A stretch of DNA of 64,000 nt from a virus (Duplodnaviria > Caudoviricetes), in the IMG/VR virus record IMGVR_UViG_3300021426_000063, positions 160,001 to 224,000 of that record; one strand, 5' to 3'. The translations under genes and the position numbers were made by a program. The number at the start of each line of letters is the position of its first letter. Position 1 is the stretch's first letter. This document shows, piece after piece, positions 3 through 28,086 of the stretch. The notes below the pieces were generated by a model, which was not told the origin of the DNA, ran no database searches, and saw only the letters and a list, made by a program, of their open reading frames with translations.

Positions 3-362
3 TTGGTAAAACACAAGAAAGATAATGTGATGTTCAATATTGCAATGAAAACATGTATATCTTATCTTATGTTTGAGATGGATTTCTGTGATCTCTTTGA
101 CTGGGTGAAGAAGCAGGCACCAGGAATGACAGACTATACTGCATTCAAAACAGTGATGAGACCAAGGAGAAGAAACAAGGATTGTTCAATTATGTCTGGA
201 GAACCTATGACAACATATTTCCAGGGATTTAATATGGTCAATACTATGGATGACCAGATGAGAGATGACATCCTACATTATAATATAGGTCCAGACCAGA
301 AATATGAACTTGAGAATATCAAGGAGTTCCTGAAGGTAAATAAATTCAAATCATTGAAATAA
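3..362 (+). CDS. C-terminal part of a protein truncated by the window edge; weak resemblance to the DUF1704/MATCAP-like metallopeptidase C-terminus
   Basis: Open frame from window start; AFKTVMRPRRRNKDCS...YFQG loosely matches the DUF1704 R.KRG..DTS...Y..G pattern. Confidence 0.4.
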   Translation: MVKHKKDNVMFNIAMKTCISYLMFEMDFCDLFDWVKKQAPGMTDYTAFKTVMRPRRRNKDCSIMSGEPMTTYFQGFNMVNTMDDQMRDDILHYNIGPDQKYELENIKEFLKVNKFKSLK

Positions 363-363
363 T

Positions 364-765
364 ATGAATACATTACTTGAATATAAAGATTTTATAACAT
401 TCAAAAGTTATATCAAGGAATCATTGGATAAACATATGTTTGATGAAGATCCAGGTGTTGATTTTGATGAACATTGGGTAAAATCAGAAAAGGGTTCTCC
501 TGAATTCCAATATGTATCAGATAGACTTCCTGTTTATAAAGGAAACAGACCACCTGTTGTTGACAGTGTATTCAATGCCGGCAACCATTATATTGCATAT
601 ATCTATGGTGGTGAGAATGGTCCTGGAAATTGGAAAGACTATTCAAAATGGTTAAGTGAGTTGTTTGCAAACCTTGATGGTGCAATACCTATTGACTTAA
701 CAAATGATTGTCCTGATGATGTATGGACATTGAGGTTATCATTTAAAATAAAAGAGAGTCTATAA
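364..765 (+). CDS. Hypothetical protein with capsid-targeting-like leader (FITFKSYIKE), possible internal head protein
   Basis: 133-aa ORF starting right after the upstream stop; leader resembles T4 internal-protein targeting sequences. Confidence 0.6.
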   Translation: MNTLLEYKDFITFKSYIKESLDKHMFDEDPGVDFDEHWVKSEKGSPEFQYVSDRLPVYKGNRPPVVDSVFNAGNHYIAYIYGGENGPGNWKDYSKWLSELFANLDGAIPIDLTNDCPDDVWTLRLSFKIKESL

Positions 766-781
766 CAGACTCTCTTTTTTC
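751..781. terminator. Bidirectional intrinsic terminator between convergent genes
   Basis: AAAGAGAGTC-TATAACA-GACTCTCTTT(TTT), perfect stem flanked by A and T tracts. Confidence 0.85.
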
Positions 782-1146
782 TGTGGTTTGCACATATAAA
801 CATCCAGTTCATATAGTGTACCATCCATAGATGCAAGTTGTGTCTTCTTGATTTCATCCTTATGGACTTTCATAATCTCATCTGCTATTCCTCTTATAAG
901 CATTTCAGGAACCCTTTCTTCAATGAAACCTTCATAACCTTTCATCCTTCCATATGTATCCATCATAGTATTGGAAATCATATACTGTGCATGTACCTTG
1001 TCAATATGGTACTGGTCATAGCATATCATTGAAGGAAGTGATGAAGACATCATTGGTAAACACATTTCCCTATTAACAGTCTTCTCATCGAGTTTCTTTG
1101 CTGTATTAAGAAACCACTTTGATAATTTTTCTCTCAATTTACTCAT
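760..1146 (-). CDS. Hypothetical protein
   Basis: 128-aa ORF with ATGA overlap to the upstream phosphoesterase gene. Confidence 0.7.
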   Translation of the reverse strand: MSKLREKLSKWFLNTAKKLDEKTVNREMCLPMMSSSLPSMICYDQYHIDKVHAQYMISNTMMDTYGRMKGYEGFIEERVPEMLIRGIADEIMKVHKDEIKKTQLASMDGTLYELDVYMCKPQKKESLL

Positions 1147-1901
1147 ATCTCAAACTCAAATGGATAATACATTTCTTTATAATCTTCATTCTTCAAGGAC
1201 ACATTCACCAACTTCTTCCCATCAAGTTCAACAGGAAGATGCTGACCAGAATGGACATGTCCACATAATGCATACTTGAAATTCCTGGTCTTCAACACCT
1301 CTGCCAATTCAGGAGAACCATAGTCTGTACCTGTATTGAAACAACCACCCTGGATGACCTCACCAAGACCTTCAATTTTTGGAGGCATATGGGTGATGAT
1401 GACATCACACTTATAAGGGATATTCTTGTACTTCTCCATAAGAGTACCATTATCCTGATAGAATGCCCAGGATGACAAATCCCTGATCCAAGGAGTACCA
1501 TAGAATCTGTGACCCTCATATTCATAAGAAGAATCACACAGATATACCAACTTATTATACTTACCTCTCAAATTACCAGGAAGGAGTTTCTTCATAACAT
1601 CAGATGCACTTCTCCAGGTATATCTCCTATATCCATCAGATTCATCTATCAATCTCCTGTGTATATTCTGTAAGAAGAAGTCATGATTACCACCTACCAA
1701 AATAAACTTCTCACAAGGAAGTTTCTCCACCCAGGGAAGAAACTCAAGACAGAACCAGGACACCATCTGTGTCTGGTCACCCTGGTAATCAAGAGGACTG
1801 ATGTCACCTGCACAGCAGACAACATCACACTCTGGGAGTTGAGGCAATGAACCATGTGTATCAGATATTGCAATACACTTTATTTTCTTTTCTTCAATCA
1901 T
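1143..1901 (-). CDS. Calcineurin-like metallophosphoesterase
   Basis: Motifs SDTHG, AGD, GGNHD, THMPP, CGHVH. Confidence 0.9.
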   Translation of the reverse strand: MIEEKKIKCIAISDTHGSLPQLPECDVVCCAGDISPLDYQGDQTQMVSWFCLEFLPWVEKLPCEKFILVGGNHDFFLQNIHRRLIDESDGYRRYTWRSASDVMKKLLPGNLRGKYNKLVYLCDSSYEYEGHRFYGTPWIRDLSSWAFYQDNGTLMEKYKNIPYKCDVIITHMPPKIEGLGEVIQGGCFNTGTDYGSPELAEVLKTRNFKYALCGHVHSGQHLPVELDGKKLVNVSLKNEDYKEMYYPFEFEI

Positions 1902-2173
1902 GCTTTATAAACCCATTCATTTAAATACCAATCACCATATATACCCATCAGGTCTTTTCTTCCTGTCAATAACTTATATGTATCTTCCATCTGTTCTTTT
2001 GTTACAATTACATATTTATTGAGAGGCATTTCAATTCCAAGATACTGTGAAACCTCATCACAAAGTTCTTGTTTACTGAACCAAATCTCACTTCTTATAT
2101 AATCATAATGTACAACATAATCATCATCTACATAATTATTGATTATGTGATGGAGCATATAATCTACCTTCAT
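1898..2173 (-). CDS. Hypothetical protein
   Basis: 91-aa ORF directly after a TTTGTTATTTTT motif; ATGA overlap with the next gene. Confidence 0.7.
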   Translation of the reverse strand: MKVDYMLHHIINNYVDDDYVVHYDYIRSEIWFSKQELCDEVSQYLGIEMPLNKYVIVTKEQMEDTYKLLTGRKDLMGIYGDWYLNEWVYKA

Positions 2174-2178
2174 AATAC

Positions 2179-2190
2179 AAAAATAACAAA
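2179..2190 (-). promoter_or_regulatory. TTTGTTATWTTT motif (putative middle promoter)
   Basis: Recurs close to start codons at 2179, 3705, 7949, 15976, 48127, 50566 (1 mismatch), 55696, 55888 on minus and 30250, 51416 on plus. Confidence 0.7.
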
Positions 2191-2218
2191 AAAGGATGAC
2201 ATTTACAAGTCATCCTTT
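2191..2218 (-). terminator. Intrinsic terminator after the methyltransferase pair
   Basis: AAAGGATGAC-8 nt-GTCATCCTTT stem with minus-strand T tract. Confidence 0.8.
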
Positions 2219-2221
2219 CAA

Positions 2222-2977
2222 TTAAAACAATTTTTCTGACAATTCACTTTGTAAATTCTTTATCCTCTCTTCTGCAATTTTATAATAATCTTCACTCATC
2301 TCAAACCCTATGAATCTCCTGTTTTCCATAATTGCGGCAACCGCAGTCGTACCACTGCCAATAAATGGATCCAGGATTACATCATCTTCATATGTGAATA
2401 ACCTGATACACCTCTTTGGTAATTCAACAGGATATGCAGCAGGATGACCTATCTTTTTCAGGTTCTCACAATTGAAACTCCACATACCATTACTCCAATC
2501 TATGAATTCTTTTTTCTCAATGGTTATCTTTCCCTTGTGAATGAGTTTTGGTGATTTACAAAATATCAATATATACTCAAAACATCTTGGAAAGGAAGGA
2601 GATGAAGGACTCATAAAACTTCCCCATGCACATCTGTTACTTGTTGTGTTCTTATTCCATATGATTATGGTGAGTATATGGAATCCTATTTCCTTTGCAA
2701 TTTGAATAAAATCAGAGTGTGTTGGTATTGAACCATTCTTTGTATCACCTATATTCACACACATCCTGCCATCATCTGTCAATACCCTGTATGATTCTGA
2801 AAAGATTTCTTTCATCCAATGAAGATAATCCTCATATGGTTTATTGTCTTTATACTCATCATAATCAAGACCTACATTATATGGTGGTGATGTTATGATA
2901 CAATGAATTGATTTGTCAGATATATCCTTCATACCTGTCAAACAATCCTCATTGTATATTTTGTTTAATTCTTTCAT
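2222..2977 (-). CDS. Beta-class DNA methyltransferase, probably N4-cytosine (SPPY)
   Basis: Catalytic TSPPY, HPAAYP, and LDPFIGSGTT SAM-binding motif; ATG at 2977 (MKELNKIYNEDCL). Confidence 0.88.
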   Translation of the reverse strand: MKELNKIYNEDCLTGMKDISDKSIHCIITSPPYNVGLDYDEYKDNKPYEDYLHWMKEIFSESYRVLTDDGRMCVNIGDTKNGSIPTHSDFIQIAKEIGFHILTIIIWNKNTTSNRCAWGSFMSPSSPSFPRCFEYILIFCKSPKLIHKGKITIEKKEFIDWSNGMWSFNCENLKKIGHPAAYPVELPKRCIRLFTYEDDVILDPFIGSGTTAVAAIMENRRFIGFEMSEDYYKIAEERIKNLQSELSEKLF

Positions 2978-3698
2978 TTGCAATATTGAAATAATTTACA
3001 TCTGTCTCAAAACCAATAAAATTTCTTCCAGTGTTCATACAAGCAATTGCAGTTGTACCTGAGCCAATACAGTTGTCAAGAATAACATCACCTTCATTGG
3101 AATAGGATTTTATCAACCACTCAATAAGTTCAACAGGTTTCTGTGTAGGATGAACCTGGTCCTGTCTCCTCCACTTCTGCTGGAACTCCAACACACTGTC
3201 AGGATATCTGTATCCATCATTGACACTGACCACTTCTTTCCTGTTGAATCCTATCTGGTGGTTATTGATGTCAACCTCTGAAATCTTATGGGTTCTCTTG
3301 TATGGTTTGCCTGGTTTCATCTGTGGGTTATAGACAGTTTTTTCACCATTCCTTGAAAAGATACTGATGTTCTCATGCTTGGCAATGGGCCTATACTTGG
3401 CACAAAAGGCAGAACCAGACTTTGACTTCTTCCAAATCAAATCATACTTGTACCATTTCAGATTACTCATCCTTAACATACTACTGAAAGGTTCTGTACC
3501 AAAGAGAATGATTGCACCATTGTCTTTGATAATTCTCTCATACTGTTCCCACAATTTATCAAAAGGAATGAGTATATCCCAGGCACAACTTGTCGACCCA
3601 TAAGGGGGATCACAGATAATACAATCCACAGACTTGTCAGGTATATCTCTCATACCAATAAGACAATCCTCATTATAAATCTTATTCAACTCCTTCAT
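2949..3698 (-). CDS. Beta-class DNA methyltransferase, probably N6-adenine (DPPY)
   Basis: CDPPY, HPTQKP, LDNCIGSGTT; ATG at 3698 just after the promoter motif at 3705-3716. Confidence 0.88.
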   Translation of the reverse strand: MKELNKIYNEDCLIGMRDIPDKSVDCIICDPPYGSTSCAWDILIPFDKLWEQYERIIKDNGAIILFGTEPFSSMLRMSNLKWYKYDLIWKKSKSGSAFCAKYRPIAKHENISIFSRNGEKTVYNPQMKPGKPYKRTHKISEVDINNHQIGFNRKEVVSVNDGYRYPDSVLEFQQKWRRQDQVHPTQKPVELIEWLIKSYSNEGDVILDNCIGSGTTAIACMNTGRNFIGFETDVNYFNIANERIKQNIQ

Positions 3699-3714
3699 AA
3701 CATTAAAAATAACA

Positions 3715-3746
3715 AAATTGGGGAGACTTAACCATCTCCCCAATTT
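3715..3746 (-). terminator. Intrinsic terminator after nrdG
   Basis: AAATTGGGGAGA-CTTAACCA-TCTCCCCAATTT perfect 12-bp stem. Confidence 0.8.
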
Positions 3747-3749
3747 CAT

Positions 3750-4232
3750 TTATAACTTTGAACTTATGTCCTCTCCTGTCTTTAAATCTATGATTCTCTG
3801 GTTTGAACTACCTCTGAATGCCAGTGATGTGTCTCTCTTTGTACAATCATACATCCCATCTACCAGAATGTCTGAAAGTTCAAGAATCTCCTTGAAGTGT
3901 TCCTTACAGTATTCATAAGTATATCCTGTATAAATCCACACATCCTTTGTGTTTCCAAACCTTTCTCTGAAATGTTGAAGAAGTTCCAGTACACCATCAG
4001 GACTGTCAAGTGGGTCACCACCACTCAATGTCAATCCCTTAATGTAAGGTTTATCTATCTCATTAAAGAGAACTTCTTCAACCTTTCCATTGTAAACCTT
4101 ACCAGAACTAAAACTCCAGGTCTTCCTGTTGTGGCACTGCTTACAATGATGGGTACAACCTGACACCCACAATGTAACCCTGCATCCTAAACCATTATTT
4201 ACATCAGATGCTGTGATACTTTCATATTTCAT
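3750..4232 (-). CDS. nrdG: Anaerobic ribonucleotide reductase activase (radical SAM)
   Basis: CTHHCKQC (CxxxCxxC), GLTLSGGDP, FRGSSNQRII; overlaps the nrdD stop. Confidence 0.95.
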   Translation of the reverse strand: MKYESITASDVNNGLGCRVTLWVSGCTHHCKQCHNRKTWSFSSGKVYNGKVEEVLFNEIDKPYIKGLTLSGGDPLDSPDGVLELLQHFRERFGNTKDVWIYTGYTYEYCKEHFKEILELSDILVDGMYDCTKRDTSLAFRGSSNQRIIDLKTGEDISSKL

Positions 4233-6535
4233 TTTACAATAATTTCCTTATTATGTTTCACTCTATCCTTTACCTCATCCTGCTTTCCAAGATTGAATGC
4301 AGTCTTGTAATCGCCGGTAAGGTATCCTGTAACTCGGCGAAGTCTGTGGATATTTGTACTTCCACATCTTGGACAGTTCTCACCAATCTCACCCTGCCAA
4401 CCACAATCAACACAAAGGTCATTAGGAGTATTAACTGCAAAGTAAGGAATGTCCTTGTTCATTGCATAATTGACAATGGTTTCCAATGCTTCAATATTAT
4501 GAAGAACTGTTGAAGGAAGTTCAACATAAGTGATACAACCTGCTGAACTGTATCCTGTCAACTGTGACTCAATGTCAATTTTCTCAAATGGAGTTACCTT
4601 TTCCCATACAGGAACATGCATTGAATTAGTGAAGTATTCTCTATCAGATACATTCTCAATGACACCATACTTGTCACGGAATTTCTTGAGAGCAGTATAG
4701 CAAAGATTTTCAGCAGGTGTATAATAAACACCAAAGTTGAGACTGTATTTCTGTTTATACTCTGCACATCTGTCTTTAAATAACTGCTCAATCCTCTTTG
4801 CAAGTTCCATACCTTCATCAGTACATTGGTTCTTACCAATAAGGAGTTGAAGTGTCTCTGCAAGACCAAGCTGACCAATTACAATAGTACCATGCTTGAG
4901 TGCTGACCTGATACCTTCTTCTGGAATGTAACCTGCCATAGTGTGGTTAATGTACATAAAGTCTGCTGACTTTGGAGACTGTGAGCAGATCCACTCAAAT
5001 CTTTCAAGAAGCATATCCTTTGCCTCACCAATCTTCTTGTCAAGGAGTTTCATAAATTTCTCAACATCCCTGTCTGCTTCCATTGCAAGGGTAGGCATAA
5101 TGATGGTCACAGGGCAGATGTTACCTCTACCATCCTTCAACTGACCAAAACCATTGATGTCCCAACCATTGGCAGTACGACAACCCATTGTACTGAAATA
5201 AGTTCTTGGATCATTCCTGTCATAACCAGCATTACCTGACCAGTCTACATTGGCATAGTTAGGATAGAGCCTCTTTGCTGTTGACTGCAAGGCCATCTTG
5301 AACAAATCATAATTAGGAGTACCAGGTCTGTCATTGACACCCTTCATATACTGGAAGATACCACAAGGGAAGATAGGAGTCTTATGGAACTTACCAACAC
5401 CCTTGATTGAACCCTGGATGAGAGCCTTTGTAACAACCCTACCTTCTGCACTGGTACAAGTACCATAGTTGATGGAAGTGAAAGGAAGCTGATTACCACT
5501 TCTGGACTGTAAGGTGTTGAGGTTATGATACATACCTTCAACAGCCTGCTTTAACTCAATAAGAGTATTCTTCTTTGCACTCTGATAATAGACAGGATTA
5601 AGTTTCTCCTTGTTGTCAAAGAAGAAGTCTTCCCTGGTGAGACCCAATTTCTTGAGCATCTCATCCCTGTGTTCATCACACCAGTCATCAAACTTGTTTC
5701 TTGAAATGATGTACTTCTTTCCATCATCACCAATAATAGTCTCATCATAATCACTGAAAATCATTTCTTCAACATCCAGTTCAAGGAACTCTGGACAGTC
5801 TTCAAGACATCTCTGGATATAGTGTTTGAAGAATGATTTCTGAACATAAGGTACCATTGTCCAGTCAAGGTGTGTTGCTGATACACCACCAAACTGCTGA
5901 AGTGACTGTAACTGGAAGATGACTGCGACAAGCTGCATTGCAGTATTGATTGAGTTGGCAGGACGTACATCTGTCTGTCTTGTGTTGAATCCCTTTGAGA
6001 GTAAATCATCAAATGGAACAGAAAGACAGTTGTGCATACCTGCTGCATAGGAATCAAGGTCATGGATATAAATCTCATTGTTAATATGATTGTTCCTTGA
6101 CTTCCTTGACATACAATTCTTCAAAGCATAATCCTTCAAAACAAGTCTTGTAACCTCACCCATCTTACCACCAAATGATGATTCATCCACATTGGCATTC
6201 TGGTTCTTTACATCTGATGCTTTGATTGCTTTCTCAACCTCCTTCTCCTGCTTACTCTTCTCATCTCTCATTGCCTTGTGTTCTGCTCTATAAATGATGA
6301 AGTTTTTTGCAACACAAGGATAATACCTCATAAGATACTTTTCAAGTTTATCCTGGATGTCTTCCACATGCATTGATTCTTCCTCAATGTCATTCACCCA
6401 CCCCTTGATAAAATCATAAACCTCAACAGGTGTCTCCATCTCTTTTGATGCAAATGCCTTGTCAAGGACATTATAAATCTTCTCAATTCGGAAGTGGGCA
6501 GGTGTCCCATCTCTTTTTATTACTGTTTTAATCAT
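4229..6535 (-). CDS. nrdD: Class III anaerobic ribonucleoside-triphosphate reductase
   Basis: N-terminal ATP cone (VIKRDG), IYIHDLD, HNC, MGCRT, TPAENL, CVDC/CPRC zinc site, glycyl-radical RRVTGYL. Confidence 0.97.
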   Translation of the reverse strand: MIKTVIKRDGTPAHFRIEKIYNVLDKAFASKEMETPVEVYDFIKGWVNDIEEESMHVEDIQDKLEKYLMRYYPCVAKNFIIYRAEHKAMRDEKSKQEKEVEKAIKASDVKNQNANVDESSFGGKMGEVTRLVLKDYALKNCMSRKSRNNHINNEIYIHDLDSYAAGMHNCLSVPFDDLLSKGFNTRQTDVRPANSINTAMQLVAVIFQLQSLQQFGGVSATHLDWTMVPYVQKSFFKHYIQRCLEDCPEFLELDVEEMIFSDYDETIIGDDGKKYIISRNKFDDWCDEHRDEMLKKLGLTREDFFFDNKEKLNPVYYQSAKKNTLIELKQAVEGMYHNLNTLQSRSGNQLPFTSINYGTCTSAEGRVVTKALIQGSIKGVGKFHKTPIFPCGIFQYMKGVNDRPGTPNYDLFKMALQSTAKRLYPNYANVDWSGNAGYDRNDPRTYFSTMGCRTANGWDINGFGQLKDGRGNICPVTIIMPTLAMEADRDVEKFMKLLDKKIGEAKDMLLERFEWICSQSPKSADFMYINHTMAGYIPEEGIRSALKHGTIVIGQLGLAETLQLLIGKNQCTDEGMELAKRIEQLFKDRCAEYKQKYSLNFGVYYTPAENLCYTALKKFRDKYGVIENVSDREYFTNSMHVPVWEKVTPFEKIDIESQLTGYSSAGCITYVELPSTVLHNIEALETIVNYAMNKDIPYFAVNTPNDLCVDCGWQGEIGENCPRCGSTNIHRLRRVTGYLTGDYKTAFNLGKQDEVKDRVKHNKEIIVK

Positions 6536-15473: not shown

Positions 15474-15708
15474 AAACTGAATCATAAATGTCCTGGAGAC
15501 TAAACTGACCATACTTGGAATGAAGTTCAGACATCATTCCATCTTCTTTCTCTTTGATTGATTTCAAGGTTTTTTCAAGTTCAATGACCTTATCTTGAAT
15601 CTCTTCTGCTTTCTTTTGATATACAAACAGTTCTTCAGAGACATTCCTGTACTCTTCAACAATGTCTCTGATTTCTTTTGATTCCTGTTCTGTGAAGTTA
15701 ATCTTCAT
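15442..15708 (-). CDS. Coiled-coil hypothetical protein
   Basis: 88 aa, E/K-rich heptads, in an operon between GroES and primase. Confidence 0.7.
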   Translation of the reverse strand: MKINFTEQESKEIRDIVEEYRNVSEELFVYQKKAEEIQDKVIELEKTLKSIKEKEDGMMSELHSKYGQFSLQDIYDSVYDDRFREYNH

Positions 15709-15970
15709 CTTTTACAATCTTTGCAAAAACAAATCCTTCCTTTATACAATCATATTTTACACCATCTATCTTGATTGGTGTTGACCTGCCAATAGGTTTT
15801 ACAATGATGTCACCTTCTTTGAGTATTGAACCATCATATACTTTCAACACCCTGGCAAATCTGTTGTATTGTTCATCTGGTATATATAAACCAGATTTAG
15901 TTATATTCTCATTCTTTATGTCCTGGATGAGTATATAACCATTCTTCATTTCTATTGGTATGTTATTCAT
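15698..15970 (-). CDS. GroES/Cpn10-like co-chaperonin
   Basis: Mobile loop ITKSGLYIP, LKEGDIIV, IKIDGVKY. Confidence 0.8.
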   Translation of the reverse strand: MNNIPIEMKNGYILIQDIKNENITKSGLYIPDEQYNRFARVLKVYDGSILKEGDIIVKPIGRSTPIKIDGVKYDCIKEGFVFAKIVKDED

Positions 15971-16126
15971 ATTGTAAATATAACAAAAGACAATAACTTC
16001 TAAAAAAACATAATTTATTAATTGAAAAATATGTATTGAAAGTCCTAATATATTAGATATGTTGTTTTATAAAGATACTTATTTGTACTATTGTACATAA
16101 ATATTATATAAAAAAGTAAAGTTTAT

Positions 16127-16669
16127 ATGAATTATTATATAGCATTGGAGATGGTAGGATATTCATCTGTGAGTAGTTTCTTGAGTAGTCTTGGTGAAAA
16201 ACCAACATATGGTACTTGTGAAGATTTTTCAGATCCTTTTAATAGTTATACACCTGATAGCCAATTTCACAGTAGAAATACTGGTTCTAGTACTGGTCAA
16301 TGGTATCCATCTCCAAAATCCTATAGTGGAACAACATATGCATTATATAGAATTGATGGATATGAATTAGATAATTTTGATATAGGAACTCTTGCTGCCC
16401 GAGATGATATTCATAGTTCTCTTTGGTTATATGTGAATGATAGTGGTGCAAGTGGTGATCAGATAGTATATCTCAATAAATATGTTGCACCAACTTTAAC
16501 ATCTATATCAATTAAGATTGGAGGTTCATATGTGTCATCAAGTACAAGTATAAAGGTAGGTGAACAAAAGGAAATACAAATAATTGGAAATTACAGTAAT
16601 GGTGAGACTAGGAATATCACTACTTCTGCATCATTGACACGTAGTAATACAAATATAAGTATTGTATAA
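16127..16669 (+). CDS. Small virion-type protein A: unique N-domain plus N-terminal half of a Big_2 Ig domain
   Basis: C-terminus PTLTSISIKIGG...IKVGEQKEIQIIGNYSNGETRNITTSASLTRSNTNISIV*; own CATAAATA and terminator. Confidence 0.75.
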   Translation: MNYYIALEMVGYSSVSSFLSSLGEKPTYGTCEDFSDPFNSYTPDSQFHSRNTGSSTGQWYPSPKSYSGTTYALYRIDGYELDNFDIGTLAARDDIHSSLWLYVNDSGASGDQIVYLNKYVAPTLTSISIKIGGSYVSSSTSIKVGEQKEIQIIGNYSNGETRNITTSASLTRSNTNISIV

Positions 16670-16672
16670 ATT

Positions 16673-16702
16673 AAGGACTTCTTTTTAGAAGTCTTTTTTT
16701 TT
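16673..16702 (+). terminator. Intrinsic terminator
   Basis: AAGGACTTCT-TTTT-AGAAGTCTT plus T tract. Confidence 0.85.
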
Positions 16703-16767
16703 ATCCAGAAAATTCCAAATGATATTGCATAAATAACATATATTTAATAATTAGATTGTTTAGAGTT

Positions 16768-17274
16768 ATGGCAGCAGGAAGTGTTATTTGTGTTGAATCA
16801 AGTACAAGTTATATAAATACATTCAGAAATTCATATGGCAGTAATTTGACAGTGTATAATGGTGATGCTATAATTTATAATGTACCTACTAATGAATGGA
16901 TAAAAATTAAAACATTTAATAATAAATATTATGCTTGTGCTTATGTTGGTAGATTTGTAGGATCTTCAGCAAATTTAAATGTTATAAATTCTGGGTCTAA
17001 TACACCTAAAAAATGGGTATATGATACAAGTACAAGTATAGTTGACCCAGATTTTCAGGGAGGTATGACAATTACAGCATATTTATTAAAAGAATATGTC
17101 CCTGCTGTTACATCTATTTCAGTTACAGTAGGAGGTTCATCTGGAAGTACATCAGTTAAGGTAGATGAGCAAAAGGAGATTGTGGTTACAGCAAATTATG
17201 ATGATGGTTCTACTTCTACTGTAACACATAGTGCAACATTGACACCTAGTAATTCAAATATAAGTATTGTATAA
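16768..17274 (+). CDS. Small virion-type protein B: different N-domain plus the same Big_2 N-half
   Basis: C-terminus PAVTSISVTVGG...VKVDEQKEIVVTANYDDGSTSTVTHSATLTPSNSNISIV*; ATG at 16768; own CATAAATA and terminator. Confidence 0.75.
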   Translation: MAAGSVICVESSTSYINTFRNSYGSNLTVYNGDAIIYNVPTNEWIKIKTFNNKYYACAYVGRFVGSSANLNVINSGSNTPKKWVYDTSTSIVDPDFQGGMTITAYLLKEYVPAVTSISVTVGGSSGSTSVKVDEQKEIVVTANYDDGSTSTVTHSATLTPSNSNISIV

Positions 17275-17296
17275 AAATCTTAATTATAATATATAT

Positions 17297-17330
17297 AAAT
17301 GACCTGTCTTATTTGACTGGTCATTTTTTT
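17297..17330 (+). terminator. Intrinsic terminator
   Basis: AAATGACCTGTC-TTATTT-GACTGGTCATTT stem (one mismatch) plus T tract, followed by CATAAATA. Confidence 0.75.
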
Positions 17331-17375
17331 ATTTCCCATAAATAACTTATATGAAAATAACATAAGTATATAGAT

Positions 17376-17597
17376 ATGGAAAATGACATTCAAACAATTT
17401 CCTATATCAATTTGGGAGATGGTCAGGAACACCCAATAGATGCTGTTTCAGTTGGTGGAAAACTTGGTGAAAATATCCAGGTGACCAATAATCTTGTTAC
17501 ATCTGTGAATTCAAGTTCATCAGATACACAATATCCATCTGCAAAATGTGTATATACATTGATAGGTGATATAGAAACTCTTTTGAGTAATATTTAA
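17376..17597 (+). CDS. Small fibre-associated protein
   Basis: 73 aa with a YPSAKCVY...IGDIETLL pattern I associate with phage fibre proteins; same late unit as the giant fibre. Confidence 0.6.
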   Translation: MENDIQTISYINLGDGQEHPIDAVSVGGKLGENIQVTNNLVTSVNSSSSDTQYPSAKCVYTLIGDIETLLSNI

Positions 17598-17614
17598 AAA
17601 AAATGATTTAATTT

Positions 17615-20600
17615 ATGGCAAAATATGTAAAGGGTTTAAATGCTGGTTCCTCAACATTGACTGCAACATATTCAGGTAAAACTGCTAGTATTAATATAAC
17701 AGTTAATAAGGGTGCTGGAACTTTAGGTAGTGCTGATGCATTATCTGACCATGAATATCGTACAGGTCCACATACATATACATTAACAGTTACAGGAGCA
17801 TCAGGAAGTGTATCATTTAACACAAGTTCATCATATTTAACTGTTACAAAAGATGGAAGTTCTTATAATAAATCTGGATGGTCAGTTACATCTACTGGAG
17901 GTCTTGCAACTGCTGCTTCAATAAATGCTGGTACATATACAGTTAAGTGTTATGTTACATCTGCTGCAACCACTAATTATAATTCAGTATCTGGATATTT
18001 AACTTGGACATTTAAAATTACAAAAGCCACACCAACCTGTTCAATATCAATACCTGATTATACATATGGTGGAACAAAATCTAATTATAATTTCTCTGCT
18101 AATATGGGTGTTGGAAGTGTTGATGTATATCTTAACTCAACCAATTCAACATCTGGTGGAACATTGTGGGGTAATGCAACATCTACAACATTGAATGCTG
18201 GTACAAGATATATATATGCAATTGTTGGTGCTGGAACAAATACAAATGCAGTTACTGTTGGACCAACTGCTTTTACAATCAGTAAAGCTAGTCAGTCTGC
18301 TCCAACTGCATCAGGTAATTCAAGTACATATTCAACATCTGGTTCAATTAGTGGTAGTGCATCAGGAGGTGGAGGTGTTGGTACACTTTATTATAAGGCA
18401 GATACATCAGGTGGAACAAGTTATGGTACAGCTGCAACATCTGTATCAAGGTCAAGGTCTTCTGTTGGTACAACAACCTTTGTTGCTTACTGGAGTGGTA
18501 ATGATAACTATAATGCATCACCAAATTCAAATCAAGCAAGTCTTGTTATTGGTAAAGCAGATCAGTCTGCTCCAACAGCATATGGAGATACAAAATCATA
18601 TGGTTCAACAGCAACTGCAACAACATCTGGTGGTGGCGGTCAGGGTTCTATTGAATGGTCTAATGGTAGTACAAGAACAGATGTTGGTTCACAGACAACA
18701 AAAGCAAGATGGTCTGGTAACAGTAATTATAATGCATCAGGTTGGTCTAATGAGGTAACACTTAAAATCAACAAAGCAGATCAGTCTGCTCCAACACCAA
18801 AAGGATCATCAAGTACTTATTCATCATCTGGTTCAATTAGTGGTAGTGCATCAGGAGGTGGAGGTCATGGTTCACTTTATTATAAGGTTGATACATCAGG
18901 TGGAACCAGTTATGGTTCTGCAACAACTACTGCACCTTCAAGAAATAGGAACTCTGTTGGTACAACCACTTTTGTTGCTTACTGGGGTGGTGATGGTAAC
19001 TATAATGCATCACCTAATTCAAGTCAGGCAAGTCTTGTTATTGATAGAGCAGGTCAGCCTGCTCCAACTGCAACAGGTTCATCAGTAACATATCCTAATA
19101 CTGCAACTGCATCATATTCAGGTGGTGGAGGTGTTGGTACGCTTACTTGGACAAATGGTAGTTCAAGATCTGCAATTGGTTCACAGACAACAAAGGCATA
19201 TTGGAGTGGTAATGGTAATTATTATGCTTCTGGATATTCTAATGAAGTAACACTTTCTGTATCTAAATATACACCAACCATTTCTTTGTCTGCAACAGAT
19301 AGGATATATAATGGTAATGCCCTTTATGCAACAGCAACAGTATCTGTTCCTTCTGGTGGTAAAACTATGAAAGGTACTATTTATTATGGTACATCTTCTG
19401 GTTCAACATCATATAGTGTATCCTATAGTGGTTCTGCTGTATCATTGAGTTCAGTGAGTGTAACTAACTATAATAGTGGTTCTGGTAATTCAGTAACTGT
19501 ATTTGCTTACTTTGTACCTGACAGTACTTGTAATGATGTATATAATAGTTCAGGCAATGCAAGTAAGACTATGACCATTACTGGTCCTACAAGTCAGTCT
19601 GCTCCAACAGCAACAGGTGCTTCTTCTCAATATGCAACATCTGGTTCAATTAGTGGTAGTGCATCAGGTGGTGGTGGGCATGGTACACTTTATTATAAGG
19701 CAGATACTAATGGAGGAACAAGTTATGGTTCTGCTGCAACATCTGTATCAAGGTCAAAGAGTTCTTTGGGTACAACAACCTTTGTTGCTTACTGGGGTGG
19801 TGATGGTAACTATAATGCATCAGGTAATTCTAACCAGGCAAGTCTTACTGTTGTAAAGGCAGATCAATCTGCTCCAACAGCAACCGGTTCATCAGTAACT
19901 TATCCTAGTACTGCAACTGCTTCTGCATCTGGTGGAGGCGGTCAGGGTTCTATTGAGTGGTATAATGGTAGTTCAAGGTCTGCCATTGGTTCACAGACAA
20001 CAAAGGCAAGATGGTCTGGAAATACATATTATAATGCATCTGGATATTCTATTGAGGTAACTCTTTCAGTTGCAAAATATACACCAACTGTTACATTGTC
20101 TGCAACAGATAGAGCATACAATGGTAATGCTTTATATGCATCAGCAACAGTATCTGTACCATCAGGAGGTAAGACAATGAAAGGTACAATATACTATGGT
20201 ACATCTTCTGGTTCAACATCATATAGTGTATCATATAGTGGTTCTTCTGTATCATTGAGTTCAGTAAGTGTAACTAATGTTGGTTCAGCAACAGTATATG
20301 CTTACTTTGTACCTGACAGTACTTGTAATGATGTATACAATAGTTCAGGTAATGTAAGTAAGACATTTACTGTTAGAAAGGCTGATCAGGATGCTCCAAC
20401 AGCAACTGGTTCATCAGTTACTTATCCTAGTACTGCTACTGCTTCCGCTTCAGGTGGAGGTGGTCAGGGTTCTATTGAATGGTATAATGGTTCATCAAGA
20501 AGTTCTGTTGGTTCACAGACAACAAAAGCAAGATGGTCTGGTAACAGTAATTATAATGCATCAGGTTATTCTAATGAAGTAACTCTTTCAGTTGCTAAAT

Positions 20601-23600
20601 ATACACCTTCTGTAACATTGAGTGTAACTGATAGGAAGTATAATGGAAATGCACTTTATGCAACAGCAACTGTATCAGGTGCATCTGGTGGTGCAACTCC
20701 AAAGGGAACTATTTATTATGGTACAAGTTCAGGTTCAACATCATATAGTGTTTCATATACTGGTTCTTCTGTATTATTGAGTTCAGTGAGTGTAACTAAT
20801 GTTGGTTCAGCAACAGTATATGCTTACTTTACACCAGATTCTACTTGTAGTGGTGTCTATAATAACTCTGGTAGTGCAAGTAAGACATTTACTGTTAGTA
20901 AGGCTGACCAATCTGCTCCAACAGCAACAGGTGCAACAGTTACTTATCCTAGTACTGCTACTGCTACTGCTACAGGTGGTGGTGGTCAAGGTACACTTAC
21001 TTGGACTAATGGAGATACACAAAGTGGTGCTGGTTCAAAAACAACAAAGGCTTACTGGGCTGGTAACAGTAATTATAATGCATCAGGTTATTCTAATGAA
21101 GTAACACTTAAAGTTAACAAGGCTGCTGGTTCTACTGGTGTATCAACATCAGCAATGTCAATTACTTATAGTACAACATCTGCAACAAGAACAGTATCTG
21201 GAAATACAAATACTGTATCTGTTTCTTCAAGTAATGAAAATATTGCTACTGTATCAATTTCTGGTTCAACTATTACAGTAAACAGAATTGGTTATGGTAG
21301 TGCAACCATAACTGCTTCTGTTGATGCTGCTACTAATTATGAGGCAGCAACATCATCATTCACAGTTACTAATTACAAGGCTGCTGGTAGTGTTAAGACT
21401 GCACCAGCCAATAATGGTGCAACATATGGTTCAGGAAGTTATTTGTGTACAACAGGTGCTTCTGATACAGGTACAATGTATTATAGACTTGGTACAAGTG
21501 GAAGTTATAGTACAACAAGACCAACAACAAGTGGACTCAATGTTGGTTCATATACATTGTATTACTATGCTGCTGAATCAACTAATTACTATGCAACAAG
21601 TGCTGCATCTATTACAGTTACAGTTGTACAGGCAAATGGTTCAGTTGCTGGTAATGTTACTGATAGAACATATAATACTTCAGGTCAGACTGTAGGTACA
21701 CTTACATCTGCAACTGGTGATTATTATCTTGGATTTGGTAGTTCAACATCTTCTGGTCCATCATCTTGGGGAACAAAGAATGTTAATACTATTTCTGCAA
21801 CAACAGCAGGAACATATTATGTTTGGGCAAAATGTGATGCTTCTACAAATTATAAAGCTGTTGGTGCGACATACATTGGAAAAGCAATAATAAGTAGGGC
21901 ATCAACCAATGCTCCTGTTCTTGTTGCCGGTGGTACAACAACATATACAGGTTCAACCTATTATGCTACTGCTGCCAATGGTAGTGGTAACCCTTCTGGT
22001 ACAATCAAGTATGGTGCAACATCAGGTGCTTCTACTTACAGTATGACAGCAGGTACTGCTGCTAATATGACAAGTATGGGTAGAAGTGATGTTGGTACAA
22101 CAACCATCTATGCCTTCTTCCAACCAACAGATACAACCAACTATTCTAATTCTGGTGTTGCATCAACAACTGTAACCATTACTAAACCAGCAGGTGGTTC
22201 AGGTAGTGTAACAATGTCAGGTTGGACATATGGTGGAACAGTAACTAACCCTAATCCATCATCAAGTACTAATGGTACAAGTAATGTATCTTACACCTGG
22301 TATGATTCTGGAAAGACAGCTTTGTCATCAAAACCAGGTTCTACTTCAACAGCAGGAACATATTATGTAAAGGCAACCTTTGCTGCCACTACAAACTATA
22401 CAGAATACACAACTGATTATGTATCATTCACAATCAGTAAGGCTACTGGTTCAGGTAGTGTAACAATGTCAGGTTGGACATATGGAGGTACTGTAACAAA
22501 TCCATCACCATCATCAAGTACTAATGGTACAAGTAATGTATCTTACACCTGGTACAATTCAAGTAAGACAGAGTTGTCAAGTAAGCCAGGATCCAACTCA
22601 ACAGCAGGAACATATTATGTAAGGGCAACCTTTGCAGCAACAGCAAACTACAATGCTGTGACAACAGATTATGTATCATTCCCAATCAGCAAGGCAGCAG
22701 GTACTCTTTCAGGTAGTACAACTAATAGTACATATAATGGTTCAGGACAGGTTATTGGTACAATAACATCTACCACAGGTACATACTATCTTGGATTTGG
22801 TAGTTCTGCCACATCTGGTCCATCATCTTGGGGTTCAGCAAATACATCACTTTCAGCAACCAATGCCGGAACATATTATGTATGGGCATACTGTGATGCT
22901 TCAACTAACTATAATGGTGTTGGTTCAAAGTACATTGGTCCAGCAACAATATCACAGAAGTCAGTTACAGTCACAGCAGCATCAGATTCAAAGGTATATA
23001 ATGGTACTGCATTGACAAACAATACTGCATCCATCAGTGGTCAGGTGAGTGGTCATACACTTAACTCTGTAACGGTAACAGGTTCACAGACAAATGTTGG
23101 TTCATCTTCCAATGTACCAAGTGGTGCAAAGATTTATTCTGGTTCAACAGATGTTACAAGTAATTATAGTATTACTTATACAAATGGTACATTGACTGTT
23201 TCAAATGCAACCATCACAGTATCTGCACCTAACCAGAGTTATACATATACTGGTTCAGCACAGGGTAATGCCATTACAGTAACAACTGTTAACAGTCAGA
23301 CAGCAACCATCAAGTATGGTACAACATCTGGTACATACAATTTGACATCAGCACCACAGATAACCAATGTTGCTGAATCAAAGACTATCTACTATAAGGT
23401 AACTGCACCTAACCATGCTGATAAGACAGGTTCTTATACATTGACTATAACCAACAAATCAATCTCTATACCTACTCCAACAAGTGTATCAAAGACCTAT
23501 GACAGGACAGCATACAGTGCAACCTTTGGTGCTGCAACTGGTGCAACAATAACCAAGTGGAGATACTCAACAGATAACTCTACTTGGACAGAGACATCAA

Positions 23601-26600: not shown

Positions 26601-27742
26601 ACCAGAGTTATATGTATAATGGTTCATCTCAGGGTACTGCAATATCTGCTACAACAGTTAACAGTCAGGCCACAACAATCACCTATGGTACAACATCTGG
26701 TTCATATACATTGTCATCTGCTCCAAAGATAACCAATGTATCAGAATCAAAGACTATCTATTATAAGGTGACTGCACCTAACCATAATGATAAGACAGGT
26801 TCATACACATTGACTATCACCCAGAGGGCAATCACCTTCAAGGCTGATGATCAGTCAAAGGTATATGATGGTACTACATTGTCAGCAGAGAACACTGCAA
26901 CAAGAGTCACATCAACAGGTAATGCTCTTGTTTCCGGACACACTGTTGCATTCACCTGTTCAGGTACACAGACAGTAGTTGGTTCATCTGACAAAACCTT
27001 GTCAACTGTAACCATCTATGATGCATCTACCAATAATGTATCTGCTAACTATGCAATCACAAAGAACAAGGGTACATTGACTGTTACAGCAAGGACTGTT
27101 ACATTCACAGAACCTACATTCAACAGTGATACATTGACATACAACAAGTCATCAAAGACTCTTGCTTCTGGTGCAACCTGTTCTGCCGGTGGAGTTATGT
27201 ATTACTATGCATCAACATCATCAACACCTGCTACATTCTCTACAACCACTTGGAGTACTGATTCAGCAAGTGCAGTTAATGCAGGCACATATAATGTATG
27301 GTATTATTGTTATGTAGTAGATACAGATAACAACACAGGTACAGGTATCAACACAGCAAATAAGATGAGTGGTACAAAGACCATTGGTCAGAGGGAGGTA
27401 ACACTTACCTGGGGTACAAGAACATGGACATATGATGGTTCAGCACACTCAACAACCTGTACTGCTGGTAATCTTGTTTCTGGTGATACTTGTACTGTGA
27501 CATTGACTGGAAACTCAATAACAGAGATTGGTTCACAGACTGTGACAGCATCTTCATTGAGTAATCCAAACTACAAGTTACCAAGCAACAACACAGCAAC
27601 CCTTACCATTGAACCAGGTATGTTTGTTAAGTTGAGTGGTTCTTGGACAGTAGTTAAGAAGATATACAAGAAGATATCAGGTCATTGGACAGAACAGTCA
27701 TTTGACTCATTGAGTACAGATGATTTCTATGTCAAGAGATAA
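17615..27742 (+). CDS. Giant S/T/G-rich multi-repeat (Ig-like/MBG) fibre or adhesin, 3375 aa
   Basis: Dozens of ~65-110-aa beta-rich repeats incl. MBG-like VTVTA.S.SKVY.GT.LT; begins with a Big_2 C-half; ends in a VKLSGSW..VKKIYKKISGHW module. Confidence 0.8.
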   Translation: MAKYVKGLNAGSSTLTATYSGKTASINITVNKGAGTLGSADALSDHEYRTGPHTYTLTVTGASGSVSFNTSSSYLTVTKDGSSYNKSGWSVTSTGGLATAASINAGTYTVKCYVTSAATTNYNSVSGYLTWTFKITKATPTCSISIPDYTYGGTKSNYNFSANMGVGSVDVYLNSTNSTSGGTLWGNATSTTLNAGTRYIYAIVGAGTNTNAVTVGPTAFTISKASQSAPTASGNSSTYSTSGSISGSASGGGGVGTLYYKADTSGGTSYGTAATSVSRSRSSVGTTTFVAYWSGNDNYNASPNSNQASLVIGKADQSAPTAYGDTKSYGSTATATTSGGGGQGSIEWSNGSTRTDVGSQTTKARWSGNSNYNASGWSNEVTLKINKADQSAPTPKGSSSTYSSSGSISGSASGGGGHGSLYYKVDTSGGTSYGSATTTAPSRNRNSVGTTTFVAYWGGDGNYNASPNSSQASLVIDRAGQPAPTATGSSVTYPNTATASYSGGGGVGTLTWTNGSSRSAIGSQTTKAYWSGNGNYYASGYSNEVTLSVSKYTPTISLSATDRIYNGNALYATATVSVPSGGKTMKGTIYYGTSSGSTSYSVSYSGSAVSLSSVSVTNYNSGSGNSVTVFAYFVPDSTCNDVYNSSGNASKTMTITGPTSQSAPTATGASSQYATSGSISGSASGGGGHGTLYYKADTNGGTSYGSAATSVSRSKSSLGTTTFVAYWGGDGNYNASGNSNQASLTVVKADQSAPTATGSSVTYPSTATASASGGGGQGSIEWYNGSSRSAIGSQTTKARWSGNTYYNASGYSIEVTLSVAKYTPTVTLSATDRAYNGNALYASATVSVPSGGKTMKGTIYYGTSSGSTSYSVSYSGSSVSLSSVSVTNVGSATVYAYFVPDSTCNDVYNSSGNVSKTFTVRKADQDAPTATGSSVTYPSTATASASGGGGQGSIEWYNGSSRSSVGSQTTKARWSGNSNYNASGYSNEVTLSVAKYTPSVTLSVTDRKYNGNALYATATVSGASGGATPKGTIYYGTSSGSTSYSVSYTGSSVLLSSVSVTNVGSATVYAYFTPDSTCSGVYNNSGSASKTFTVSKADQSAPTATGATVTYPSTATATATGGGGQGTLTWTNGDTQSGAGSKTTKAYWAGNSNYNASGYSNEVTLKVNKAAGSTGVSTSAMSITYSTTSATRTVSGNTNTVSVSSSNENIATVSISGSTITVNRIGYGSATITASVDAATNYEAATSSFTVTNYKAAGSVKTAPANNGATYGSGSYLCTTGASDTGTMYYRLGTSGSYSTTRPTTSGLNVGSYTLYYYAAESTNYYATSAASITVTVVQANGSVAGNVTDRTYNTSGQTVGTLTSATGDYYLGFGSSTSSGPSSWGTKNVNTISATTAGTYYVWAKCDASTNYKAVGATYIGKAIISRASTNAPVLVAGGTTTYTGSTYYATAANGSGNPSGTIKYGATSGASTYSMTAGTAANMTSMGRSDVGTTTIYAFFQPTDTTNYSNSGVASTTVTITKPAGGSGSVTMSGWTYGGTVTNPNPSSSTNGTSNVSYTWYDSGKTALSSKPGSTSTAGTYYVKATFAATTNYTEYTTDYVSFTISKATGSGSVTMSGWTYGGTVTNPSPSSSTNGTSNVSYTWYNSSKTELSSKPGSNSTAGTYYVRATFAATANYNAVTTDYVSFPISKAAGTLSGSTTNSTYNGSGQVIGTITSTTGTYYLGFGSSATSGPSSWGSANTSLSATNAGTYYVWAYCDASTNYNGVGSKYIGPATISQKSVTVTAASDSKVYNGTALTNNTASISGQVSGHTLNSVTVTGSQTNVGSSSNVPSGAKIYSGSTDVTSNYSITYTNGTLTVSNATITVSAPNQSYTYTGSAQGNAITVTTVNSQTATIKYGTTSGTYNLTSAPQITNVAESKTIYYKVTAPNHADKTGSYTLTITNKSISIPTPTSVSKTYDRTAYSATFGAATGATITKWRYSTDNSTWTETSSGNPTQTNYGTLYVQAYYSANTNYTGSNWSASATISIAKREVTLTWGTHTWTYDGGAKTVTCTAGNVVSGDTCTVTLSNQSRTAAGSQTVTATGLSNSNYKLPSSTTTTLTINKATLTVVESSYSGTYDGNNHSSTVKVTNSDWTGKTIVYGSSTSYGSTATTTGTYNTAYAVHTAKDYTSSITIYYKITGDDNYNDFADSVTFQIGKATGTLTGSTSNKIYNASSQVIGTISFNTGTYYLGLGSSTTSGPSSWGSANSSLSVKDAGTYYVWAKCDGSTNYNAVSAKYIGPATVSQKSVTVTAGSAEKVYNGTALTSSNATATGLASENHHLHSWTCTGSQTYVGSGPNTASNAKIYEGTHNGTEIDVTSNYSISYSQGILSVTKATPVVTVTGVTADYTGGSFYSTAKANAIGTFYWKKGSAPTTSSYDGSVELSTLNTATNAAFVKNNSDDFEMFWLFVPSGTATIASGQTYSANFSSTSSGSSGVNLIINPRDISKVSASVASVTYNGSQQTASVNVTDTATITSSDYTISGNTGTNAGNYSITITGKNNYTGTKTITWTINKKSVTVTAGSASKVYDGTPLTKTDGVTTTTLGTGDHLHSFKVTGSITNVGIENNVLSEIKIYKGTHNGTETDATSNYTITSENGTLIVNNATITVSAPNQEYIYNGSAQGAAISASAVGGQTATIKYGTTNGSYTLTTAPQITTVAESKTIYYQVTAPNHTTKTGSYTLTIKKFTVNATATNQSKTYNGTALNAENTGSIVETLPTGHTITYSCTGSQTNVGSSAKTLSSVTIKNGSGTDVTANFTVNKNNGTLTVNAATITVSAPKQSYTYDGNKHGNAITVTTVNSQEATIKYSTSSTGTFTTTVPQITNVAESKTIYYQVTAPNHIDKSGSYELEITEKSISIPAPTAKEETYTGTAYSASFGSATGATITKYQYSSDNSTWTDSNTNPTRTDAGTTYVRAYYTAGTNYKGSGWSTSTTIKVNNATMTVSAPNQSYMYNGSSQGTAISATTVNSQATTITYGTTSGSYTLSSAPKITNVSESKTIYYKVTAPNHNDKTGSYTLTITQRAITFKADDQSKVYDGTTLSAENTATRVTSTGNALVSGHTVAFTCSGTQTVVGSSDKTLSTVTIYDASTNNVSANYAITKNKGTLTVTARTVTFTEPTFNSDTLTYNKSSKTLASGATCSAGGVMYYYASTSSTPATFSTTTWSTDSASAVNAGTYNVWYYCYVVDTDNNTGTGINTANKMSGTKTIGQREVTLTWGTRTWTYDGSAHSTTCTAGNLVSGDTCTVTLTGNSITEIGSQTVTASSLSNPNYKLPSNNTATLTIEPGMFVKLSGSWTVVKKIYKKISGHWTEQSFDSLSTDDFYVKR

Positions 27743-27765
27743 TTTTGAATTTTCATAAATACATT

Positions 27766-28086
27766 ATGAGTTTTGTAAAATTTAGATACAGAAGAAGTAA
27801 ACCATTAGATCCGGTTCCTGGTTCATTCTATTGGGTTGAACTGGATGATGATGAAACACATCAGATATGGTTTGCCCCGGATACAAACCCTGAACACCTG
27901 ATACTTCTCAATGAGAATGTTGATTTGAGTTCATATGTGAGTGAAGAAGTTCTTGCAGAAGTCCTTGCTGATTATGCCAAGACAACAGACATTCCAGAAA
28001 TAACAGAATTAACAGAATCAGATTATGATAAGATTGCTGAAAAGGTTAATGAAAAAACATTACACCTGACCTGGCAAGAAATATAA
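27766..28086 (+). CDS. Hypothetical late protein
   Basis: ATG at 27766 just after CATAAATA (27754). Confidence 0.65.
   Translation: MSFVKFRYRRSKPLDPVPGSFYWVELDDDETHQIWFAPDTNPEHLILLNENVDLSSYVSEEVLAEVLADYAKTTDIPEITELTESDYDKIAEKVNEKTLHLTWQEI

Follow-up and report, generated by a model that had tools for sequence, protein, structure and literature searches.

In the Lactococcus phage Tuc2009, one domain is built from two proteins: a 25-residue, two-stranded hairpin at the C terminus of BppU completes the beta-sheet of BppA domain 2, giving a composite titin/immunoglobulin (Ig)-like domain (PMC4742702). The incomplete sandwich is C-terminal in BppA, and the other, N-terminal domain of this protein binds carbohydrate (PMC4742702). 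Here we describe a comparable joint, predicted computationally, at the fibre locus of an uncultured giant phage (Caudoviricetes). The window, that is, the whole stretch analysed, is 64,000 nucleotides (nt) long and comprises bases 160001-224000 of a 233-kb IMG/VR virus record (IMGVR_UViG_3300021426_000063; ~62% complete, 35% G+C); DNA nearly identical to it occurs mainly in bovine gut metagenomes. Two small cap proteins, A and B, carry at their C termini the first two thirds of an Ig domain of the type that Pfam calls Big_2 (the donor half), and the giant fibre encoded downstream begins with the last third (the acceptor half). We consider it likely that the halves rebuild one Ig domain in trans, with A or B capping the N-terminal end of the fibre. 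The open reading frames (ORFs) of A, B and the fibre have the coordinates and lengths described in the original prediction, an earlier reading of this DNA from its letters alone.

The locus resembles Tuc2009 in its accessory protein, and a second likeness is predicted. As in BppA, a globular domain at the N terminus is followed by an incomplete beta-sandwich at the C terminus (seen here in the structural model of B and in a domain profile match that stops at position 62 of 99). In Tuc2009, a structural protein lends strands from one of its ends to complete the sandwich, and the same step is predicted here. The differences lie in the joint itself. In Tuc2009, the complementing piece is a C-terminal hairpin of two strands, whereas here it would be three strands, ~30 residues in all, at the N terminus of a giant fibre. 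Furthermore, unlike in Tuc2009, the cut goes through a recognisable Big_2 repeat at a gene boundary and leaves two thirds on one side and one third on the other; alternative caps exist for one socket, and relatives chain fibre segments by the same joint. In the podophages A1002 and GP4, separately encoded proteins form chain-like fibres that are held on the tail by beta-sheet augmentation; there, dimers dock along a 'rope' protein, and no single domain is cut at a gene boundary as it is here (PMC13730344). Beyond Tuc2009 and such cases of beta-augmentation, the literature gave no described split Big_2 joint in phage fibres. The original prediction knew of no described example, which overlooked the solved structure of the BppU hairpin completing BppA (PMC4742702). 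The principle is thus known, and the present case differs by the cut of a Big_2 domain at a gene boundary, the N-terminal plug of a giant fibre, the alternative caps and the chaining of segments in relatives.

Chaperone-usher and type V pili likewise consist of incomplete Ig-like subunits, each completed by the terminal strands of the next subunit, which gives non-covalent head-to-tail chains with tip subunits. In these pili, a pilin is one strand short, and assembly depends on a periplasmic chaperone and an usher or on proteolytic priming. The present halves share with pilins an incomplete Ig-like fold that is predicted to be completed by the terminus of a neighbour, and the N-terminal complementing strands resemble those of chaperone-usher pili. 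In contrast to the one strand missing from pilins, the piece missing here is ~30 residues and three strands, a third of the domain, and assembly would be cytoplasmic, in the infected cell. No member of a chaperone or usher family was seen among the neighbouring genes, which were only scanned. SpyTag/SpyCatcher and its relatives are engineered Ig-like domains in which a large and a small piece reassemble spontaneously and are locked by an isopeptide bond. They show the same large/small split, but they are man-made, and their isopeptide lock has no evident counterpart here, where no search for one was made. As for alternative fibre ends, phages Mu and P1 obtain theirs by DNA inversion, in which the invertases Gin and Cin act on C-terminal exons, and CBA120 and G7C use branched adaptors for multiple receptor-binding proteins, with dedicated adaptor domains. 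As here, one virion scaffold takes alternative terminal modules; unlike in those phages, two complete genes would compete for one socket, with no invertase and no inverted repeats.

The split itself was defined with a domain profile. In an exhaustive search with A, residues 118-178 matched repeats in the interior of many large proteins (best E 2.7e-17); four of these repeats scored 38-53 bits on Pfam Big_2, above its cut-off. On a 99-position profile built from 200 intact repeats of this type, A aligned at positions 8-62 (48 bits), B at 10-62 (35 bits) and the N terminus of the fibre (first 45 residues, of which 5-32 align) at 68-95 (18.5 bits). Artificial joins of A and B to the fibre read as one uninterrupted domain over positions 8-95, with 67 and 52 bits, respectively, and the controls, in which 31 other window proteins each gave their first 45 residues to the A half, scored 50.3 ± 1.3 bits. 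This bears out the claim of the original prediction that A and B supply the domain up to the '...ATV' strand and the fibre exactly the remainder: the gene boundary falls in the loop after that strand, with nothing lost or duplicated. In the 233-kb record, the profile matches only A and B, and the acceptor motif begins only the fibre.

In front of the half-domain, the two caps are unrelated. Profile-profile alignment (hhalign) detected no homology between their N-terminal domains (probability 0.7%), whereas their C-terminal ~60 residues are 55% identical and share the end ...N-I-S-I-V, followed by TAA, as originally described. Homologues of A with 77-91% identity are present in four metagenome contigs (L003, L006, L007 and L008), with an identical end residue, and the six homologues of B (60-81% identity) all end N-I-(S/E)-I-V. 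Relatives from different samples (L003-L008 and L090) carry A-like and/or B-like genes with 60-91% identity and, in addition, a third cap type (P0010), which has yet another N-terminal domain and the end residue of A and B. All 11 cap genes of the window and L003-L008 are open to the identical end residue, across three unrelated N-terminal domains, and the L090 fragment ends likewise. In the relatives, the caps are followed by a gene for a protein of 73 amino acids (aa) and then by a fibre that starts M-A-K-Y-V-K-G; this acceptor of ~30 residues is nearly invariant although the fibre bodies diverge, for example in L004. A fused form of the N-terminal domain of A was absent among 1.84 billion representatives, and none was found for B among longer proteins in a weaker search. 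Eight other metagenome contigs in total keep the cut, in place of the uninterrupted gene that the original prediction had named as the counter-case.

The nucleotide sequences raise the alternative that the half-domains are relics of cassette recombination, with the Ig DNA as homology anchor; the halves would then not associate, and A and B would act alone or decay. The last ~45 nt of A and B (16627-16669 and 17232-17274) are 92-96% identical, compared with ~50-67% further upstream, and the identity drops away directly after the stop codon. Moreover, in a contig of a relative from run X2, a B-like half-domain is joined to the 3' end of A and the region downstream, giving a chimeric cap end. Together, these observations suggest recombination between cap genes. 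Judged from sequence, the 3'-end identity would fit either half-domain-anchored cassette exchange or a fibre-pairing strand under strong constraint, and neither contradicts a protein joint, since a recombination anchor and a joint can coexist. The ratio of nonsynonymous to synonymous substitution rates (dN/dS), which reaches ~1 in some pairs of B-type half-domains, also fits relics. However, the 11 intact cap ends and the near-invariant acceptor speak against them, as does a cut that always falls in the same loop, with halves that never overlap or leave a gap. In addition, a three-strand piece of 30 residues and an open sandwich of five strands would be unstable alone. We regard relics as an unlikely explanation of the halves.

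The same cut recurs inside the fibres of relatives, where six further gene junctions lie at the same loop and the fibre itself takes up two or three genes. A 518-aa protein of L005 begins with an acceptor and ends with a donor, and the next gene, acceptor-first, starts six bases on. A 550-aa protein of L006 ends in the same donor as that 518-aa protein, one base before the fibre ATG, the gene order being caps, 73-aa gene, 550-aa protein and fibre. L009, a distant, syntenic contig of 31 kb, has its fibre (3-5569) in at least three consecutive genes. The junctions of genes 1 and 2 and of genes 2 and 3 fall in that loop too, the latter two genes being separated by a terminator-like hairpin; the last piece of this fibre ends with the C-terminal motif of the window fibre. 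At the six extra junctions, donors lie at profile positions 2-63 and acceptors at 67-96, and the joins read as one domain. Taken over eight junctions with single-domain joins, donors run from position 2 or 10 to 62 and acceptors from 67 or 68 to 96, and the domain is covered once, without overlap or gap. Of the donors and acceptors sought by the original prediction, relatives carry further ones, and the 233-kb record has A, B and the fibre. Its two swappable tips correspond to caps A and B, but the phenomenon is wider, as relatives appear to use the joint as a general connector between fibre segments.

The fibre also contains the intact Big_2-like domain that had been placed near 21220-21320. 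This domain, at residues ~1189-1239, runs continuous through the point where the terminal domain is cut, but its match is weak, below the Pfam cut-off. When the L004 and L005 fibres with a half-domain start are compared with the window fibre, the best alignment begins at this internal domain. Outside the family, no ORF starting or ending inside a Big_2-type domain was found in a scan of 80 unrelated phage loci. The window had neither a DNA nor a protein match among GenBank phages, relatives of A or B were not found in IMG/VR, and PHROGs returned nothing for A, B, the 73-aa protein, the fibre pieces or the neighbours. A metagenome scan with the cap alignment yielded one short contig.

Complex prediction was consistent with complementary halves. 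Fibre residues 1-136 with A residues 112-180 scored 0.86, compared with 0.00 for the best of three controls, so that the pairing proposed as a check in the original prediction passes; the mark used lets through 58 of 80 solved complexes, as against 2 of 110 mismatched pairs, and is a rough guide here, with our own alignments supplied for each chain. The runs showed at least 98% contact agreement and a predicted local distance difference test (pLDDT) score of at least 90 for the partner. The predicted interface is formed by fibre residues 1-33 and A residues 124-180, and the contacts interleave fibre strands 3-8, 13-19 and 24-30 with A strands 125-131, 140-152 and 169-180. As a model, this supports complementarity and falls short of demonstrated binding. 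B modelled alone (pLDDT 82.8) has a confident beta-sandwich as N-terminal domain (80-92) and a C-terminal partial sandwich (65-83), and this predicted half-domain aligns to PKD, FN3 and Ig domains (Z 4-4.7). Foldseek gave no match for the B model at E ≤ 0.001; its best VIA match was a pullulanase N-domain (Z 5.3), followed by CBM41, phage tail and baseplate domains (Z ~4.2-4.6), all values too low to point beyond a common beta-sandwich. The AlphaFold2 model of A alone was poor (pLDDT 50), an Atlas search gave no usable match, and the N-terminal domains of A and B had no informative match in family or structure searches.

The partners could also be others than those modelled: the fibre strands would then sit on a baseplate or capsid protein, and A and B would be completed by self-association or by a protein whose gene lies in the ~38% of the genome that the record lacks. 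This would suit the incomplete record and the excess of donors over acceptors, and the N terminus of a phage fibre is usually the end attached to the virion. In the relatives, however, only 1, 6 and 27 nt separate donor from acceptor genes, and the fibre unit always has the caps directly in front of it. The 233 kb contain no further piece of this domain type, and the predicted A-fibre pair is confident relative to its controls. Pairing with other partners therefore appears improbable.

The caps and the fibre have independent expression signals. The motif CATAAATA occurs 16 times in the window, compared with 5.8 ± 2.1 expected (~three-fold enriched), and lies ~30 nt upstream of many gene starts (sites include 9170, 11464, 16096, 16728, 17337, 27754, 48142, 51945, 56833 and 60659). 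It is like TATAAATA, the T4 late promoter, and this likeness suggests T4-like late transcription in this phage. According to the original prediction, A, B and the fibre unit each have their own copy. This is correct for A and B, but the third copy precedes the 73-aa gene, which was absent from that prediction, and not the fibre. The terminators it assigned to A and B were recovered as hairpin and U signals with supporting folding scores (Table 1). In the interval between the 73-aa gene and the fibre, neither terminator nor structure was found, and the 73-aa gene appears to be co-transcribed with the fibre.

These signals bear on whether the halves are joined covalently, by read-through, frameshifting, ribosomal bypassing, RNA splicing, DNA rearrangement or protein trans-splicing. 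The stop of A and the ATG of the fibre are indeed in the same frame, as at the L005 junction and that of genes 1 and 2 in L009. Across seven junctions, however, the frames are 0, +1, +2, 0, +1, 0 and +2 (B, +1; L004, +2; genes 2 and 3 of L009, +2), 28 in-frame stops lie between A and the fibre, and the short in-frame junctions have two or three consecutive stops. The in-frame TAA reported before the fibre ATG was found two codons upstream of it. The terminators after A and B, and the separate promoter-like motif of each, also argue against a joint product. No intron or other credible RNA family was found with Rfam in 15900-18000, contigs of four sequencing runs contained no A-fibre or B-fibre joint, and short contigs from two RNA libraries follow the DNA without a break over the ~200 nt that they cover around the boundary of the 73-aa gene and the fibre. 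The only joint at read level was a back-jump between two homologous cap ends in relatives. There was no intein/Hint match; donors end at an Ig strand, and the acceptor has M-A-K and then a strand. Covalent joining is thus very improbable, and the view of the original prediction that readthrough or frameshift fusion is unlikely holds. Programmed recoding (read-through, frameshift or bypass) was rejected, as there is no constant frame and no single leaky stop (2, 3 or 28 stops), and so was a split intein or protein trans-splicing, as intein halves were not found flanking the split point.

Several points weigh against reassembly of one Ig domain from cap and fibre. The whole evidence base is computational, and no protein has been observed. 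Pfam's own Big_2 model (PF02368) gave no match for A, B, their C-terminal 69 residues or fibre residues 1-40, even at E ≤ 10, and no call for the in-frame junction of L005 with its stops (TAA) read as glycine. Since the Ig fold has many solved examples and the halves of split domains tend to pass, the result of the complex prediction may reflect likeness or model memory. The dN/dS of the half-domains is 0.1-1.0 at few sites, and purifying selection is not clear. Donors exceed acceptors 2:1 here and visibly 3:1 in L006, so that not every cap need be used, and with the record incomplete, further donors or acceptors could be encoded elsewhere. On the other side, each computational test that was run (profile, conserved cut, frames and complex) supports the original proposal that the half-domains re-form one Ig fold in trans.

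If so, A and B would be separately transcribed late proteins, each made of a globular N-terminal domain of its own and, behind it, the first ~five strands of a Big_2-type Ig domain, and the first ~30 residues of the fibre would be the last three strands of the same domain. After translation, the N-terminal strands of the fibre would insert into the open sandwich of A or B, and this insertion would rebuild one complete Ig domain without a covalent bond. Physical binding would then take place with one cap per fibre, each fibre polypeptide carrying either A or B at its N terminus. In relatives, the same plug-and-socket cut would link consecutive fibre segments head to tail and receive more cap types.

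The orientation of such a fibre can be approached from its other end. The C-terminal end of the window fibre is 41% identical to that of L009 over 215 residues, and the N-terminal caps vary in type and number. The last ~35 residues (window 27640-27742; L009 5440-5569) share the motif G-M-F-V-K-L-S-G-x-W..V-K-K-x-(Y/F)-K-K..G-x-W, which had no match in Pfam or PDB, and are a candidate virion-attachment end. As other fibres attach by their conserved end, the conserved C terminus and the variable caps would, by analogy, place the caps distally, where they may form a ligand-binding end. With this presumed polarity, it is possible that A and B are receptor-binding tips that give virions of mixed specificity.

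The split Ig domain looks like a general connector, with modules exchangeable by recombination while the giant gene stays untouched. A further-reaching version is tentative: one Ig domain cut at a fixed loop may act as a universal plug and socket, in which any protein ending in a socket caps or extends any protein starting with a plug. Fibres might then be combinatorial, with mixed populations per infection and bet-hedged specificity, and the insertion of a gene might be enough to gain a new cap, with no need of invertases or retroelements and with the giant gene left as it is. A real joint would be a connector that occurs in nature, is encoded in genes, works without enzymes and is made from a very common domain, and it would explain how giant phage fibres can be shuffled and re-equipped. 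Tuc2009 would become one instance of a wider assembly principle, and alternative fibre ends would have a testable route besides DNA inversion and diversity-generating retroelements. A real joint would also affect gene calling, as 'truncated' Ig domains at gene ends need not be errors, and could give a new orthogonal split-domain pair for protein engineering.

Table 1. Coordinates of the split-domain locus and its putative expression signals in the window
Feature	Position	Strand	Description or basis
CATAAATA promoter-like motif of gene A	16096..16103	+	Motif enrichment
Gene A, cap protein type A, 180 aa	16127..16669	+	Unique N-terminal domain, then a Big_2-type Ig domain without its last third
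Donor half-domain of A, residues 120-180	16484..16666	+	Ends at the loop after the '...SVATV'-type strand; profile match, predicted interface
Intrinsic terminator after A, hairpin and U	16673..16696	+	Fold -11.6 kcal/mol, z -2.65
CATAAATA motif of gene B	16728..16735	+	Motif enrichment
Gene B, cap protein type B, 168 aa	16768..17274	+	Beta-sandwich N-domain, then the same half Ig domain as A
Donor half-domain of B, residues 112-168	17101..17271	+	Profile positions 10-62, 29-35 bits
Terminator hairpin and U-tract after B	17297..17333	+	Fold -14 kcal/mol, z -5.5
CATAAATA motif of the transcription unit with 73-aa gene and fibre	17337..17344	+	Motif enrichment
Conserved 73-aa gene between caps and fibre	17376..17597	+	ORF, also in relatives
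Giant fibre/adhesin-like protein, 3375 aa	17615..27742	+	Repeated beta-rich modules; weak MBG/YDG-type matches
Acceptor half-domain, fibre residues 1-33, last three strands of a Big_2-type domain	17615..17713	+	Profile positions 68-95, 18.5 bits
Uninterrupted Big_2-like domain, fibre residues ~1189-1239	21179..21331	+	Pfam Big_2 17 bits, E 0.0056, below gathering score

The 73-aa gene is truncated in L003, to only 34 aa. The last ~40 residues of its product carry the motif ...S-T-D-T-Q-Y-P-S-A-K-C-V-Y-D..G-D-I-E-T-L-L, which also forms the extreme C terminus of many unrelated phage fibre-like or collagen-like proteins (109 matches in IMG/VR, ORFs of 56-1571 aa) and may be a trimerisation or docking module. 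In two metatranscriptome libraries from different studies (runs X16 and X18), contigs span 17468-17712 unbroken, running from the last part of the 73-aa gene through the 17-nt spacer into the fibre. They are consistent with co-transcription of the 73-aa gene and the fibre, a weak hint, since such libraries can contain DNA.

Two neighbouring genes are of note. Directly upstream of the cap genes and divergent from them lies a GroES-like co-chaperonin gene (15698-15970, minus strand; Pfam Cpn10, 24.5 bits, above cut-off), whose position is kept in L004 and L007. Right after the fibre, a small conserved gene (27766-28086; L009 5600-6079) shares the motif ...F-Y-W......I-W-F-A-P-D... with its counterpart in L009 and has its own CATAAATA at 27754.

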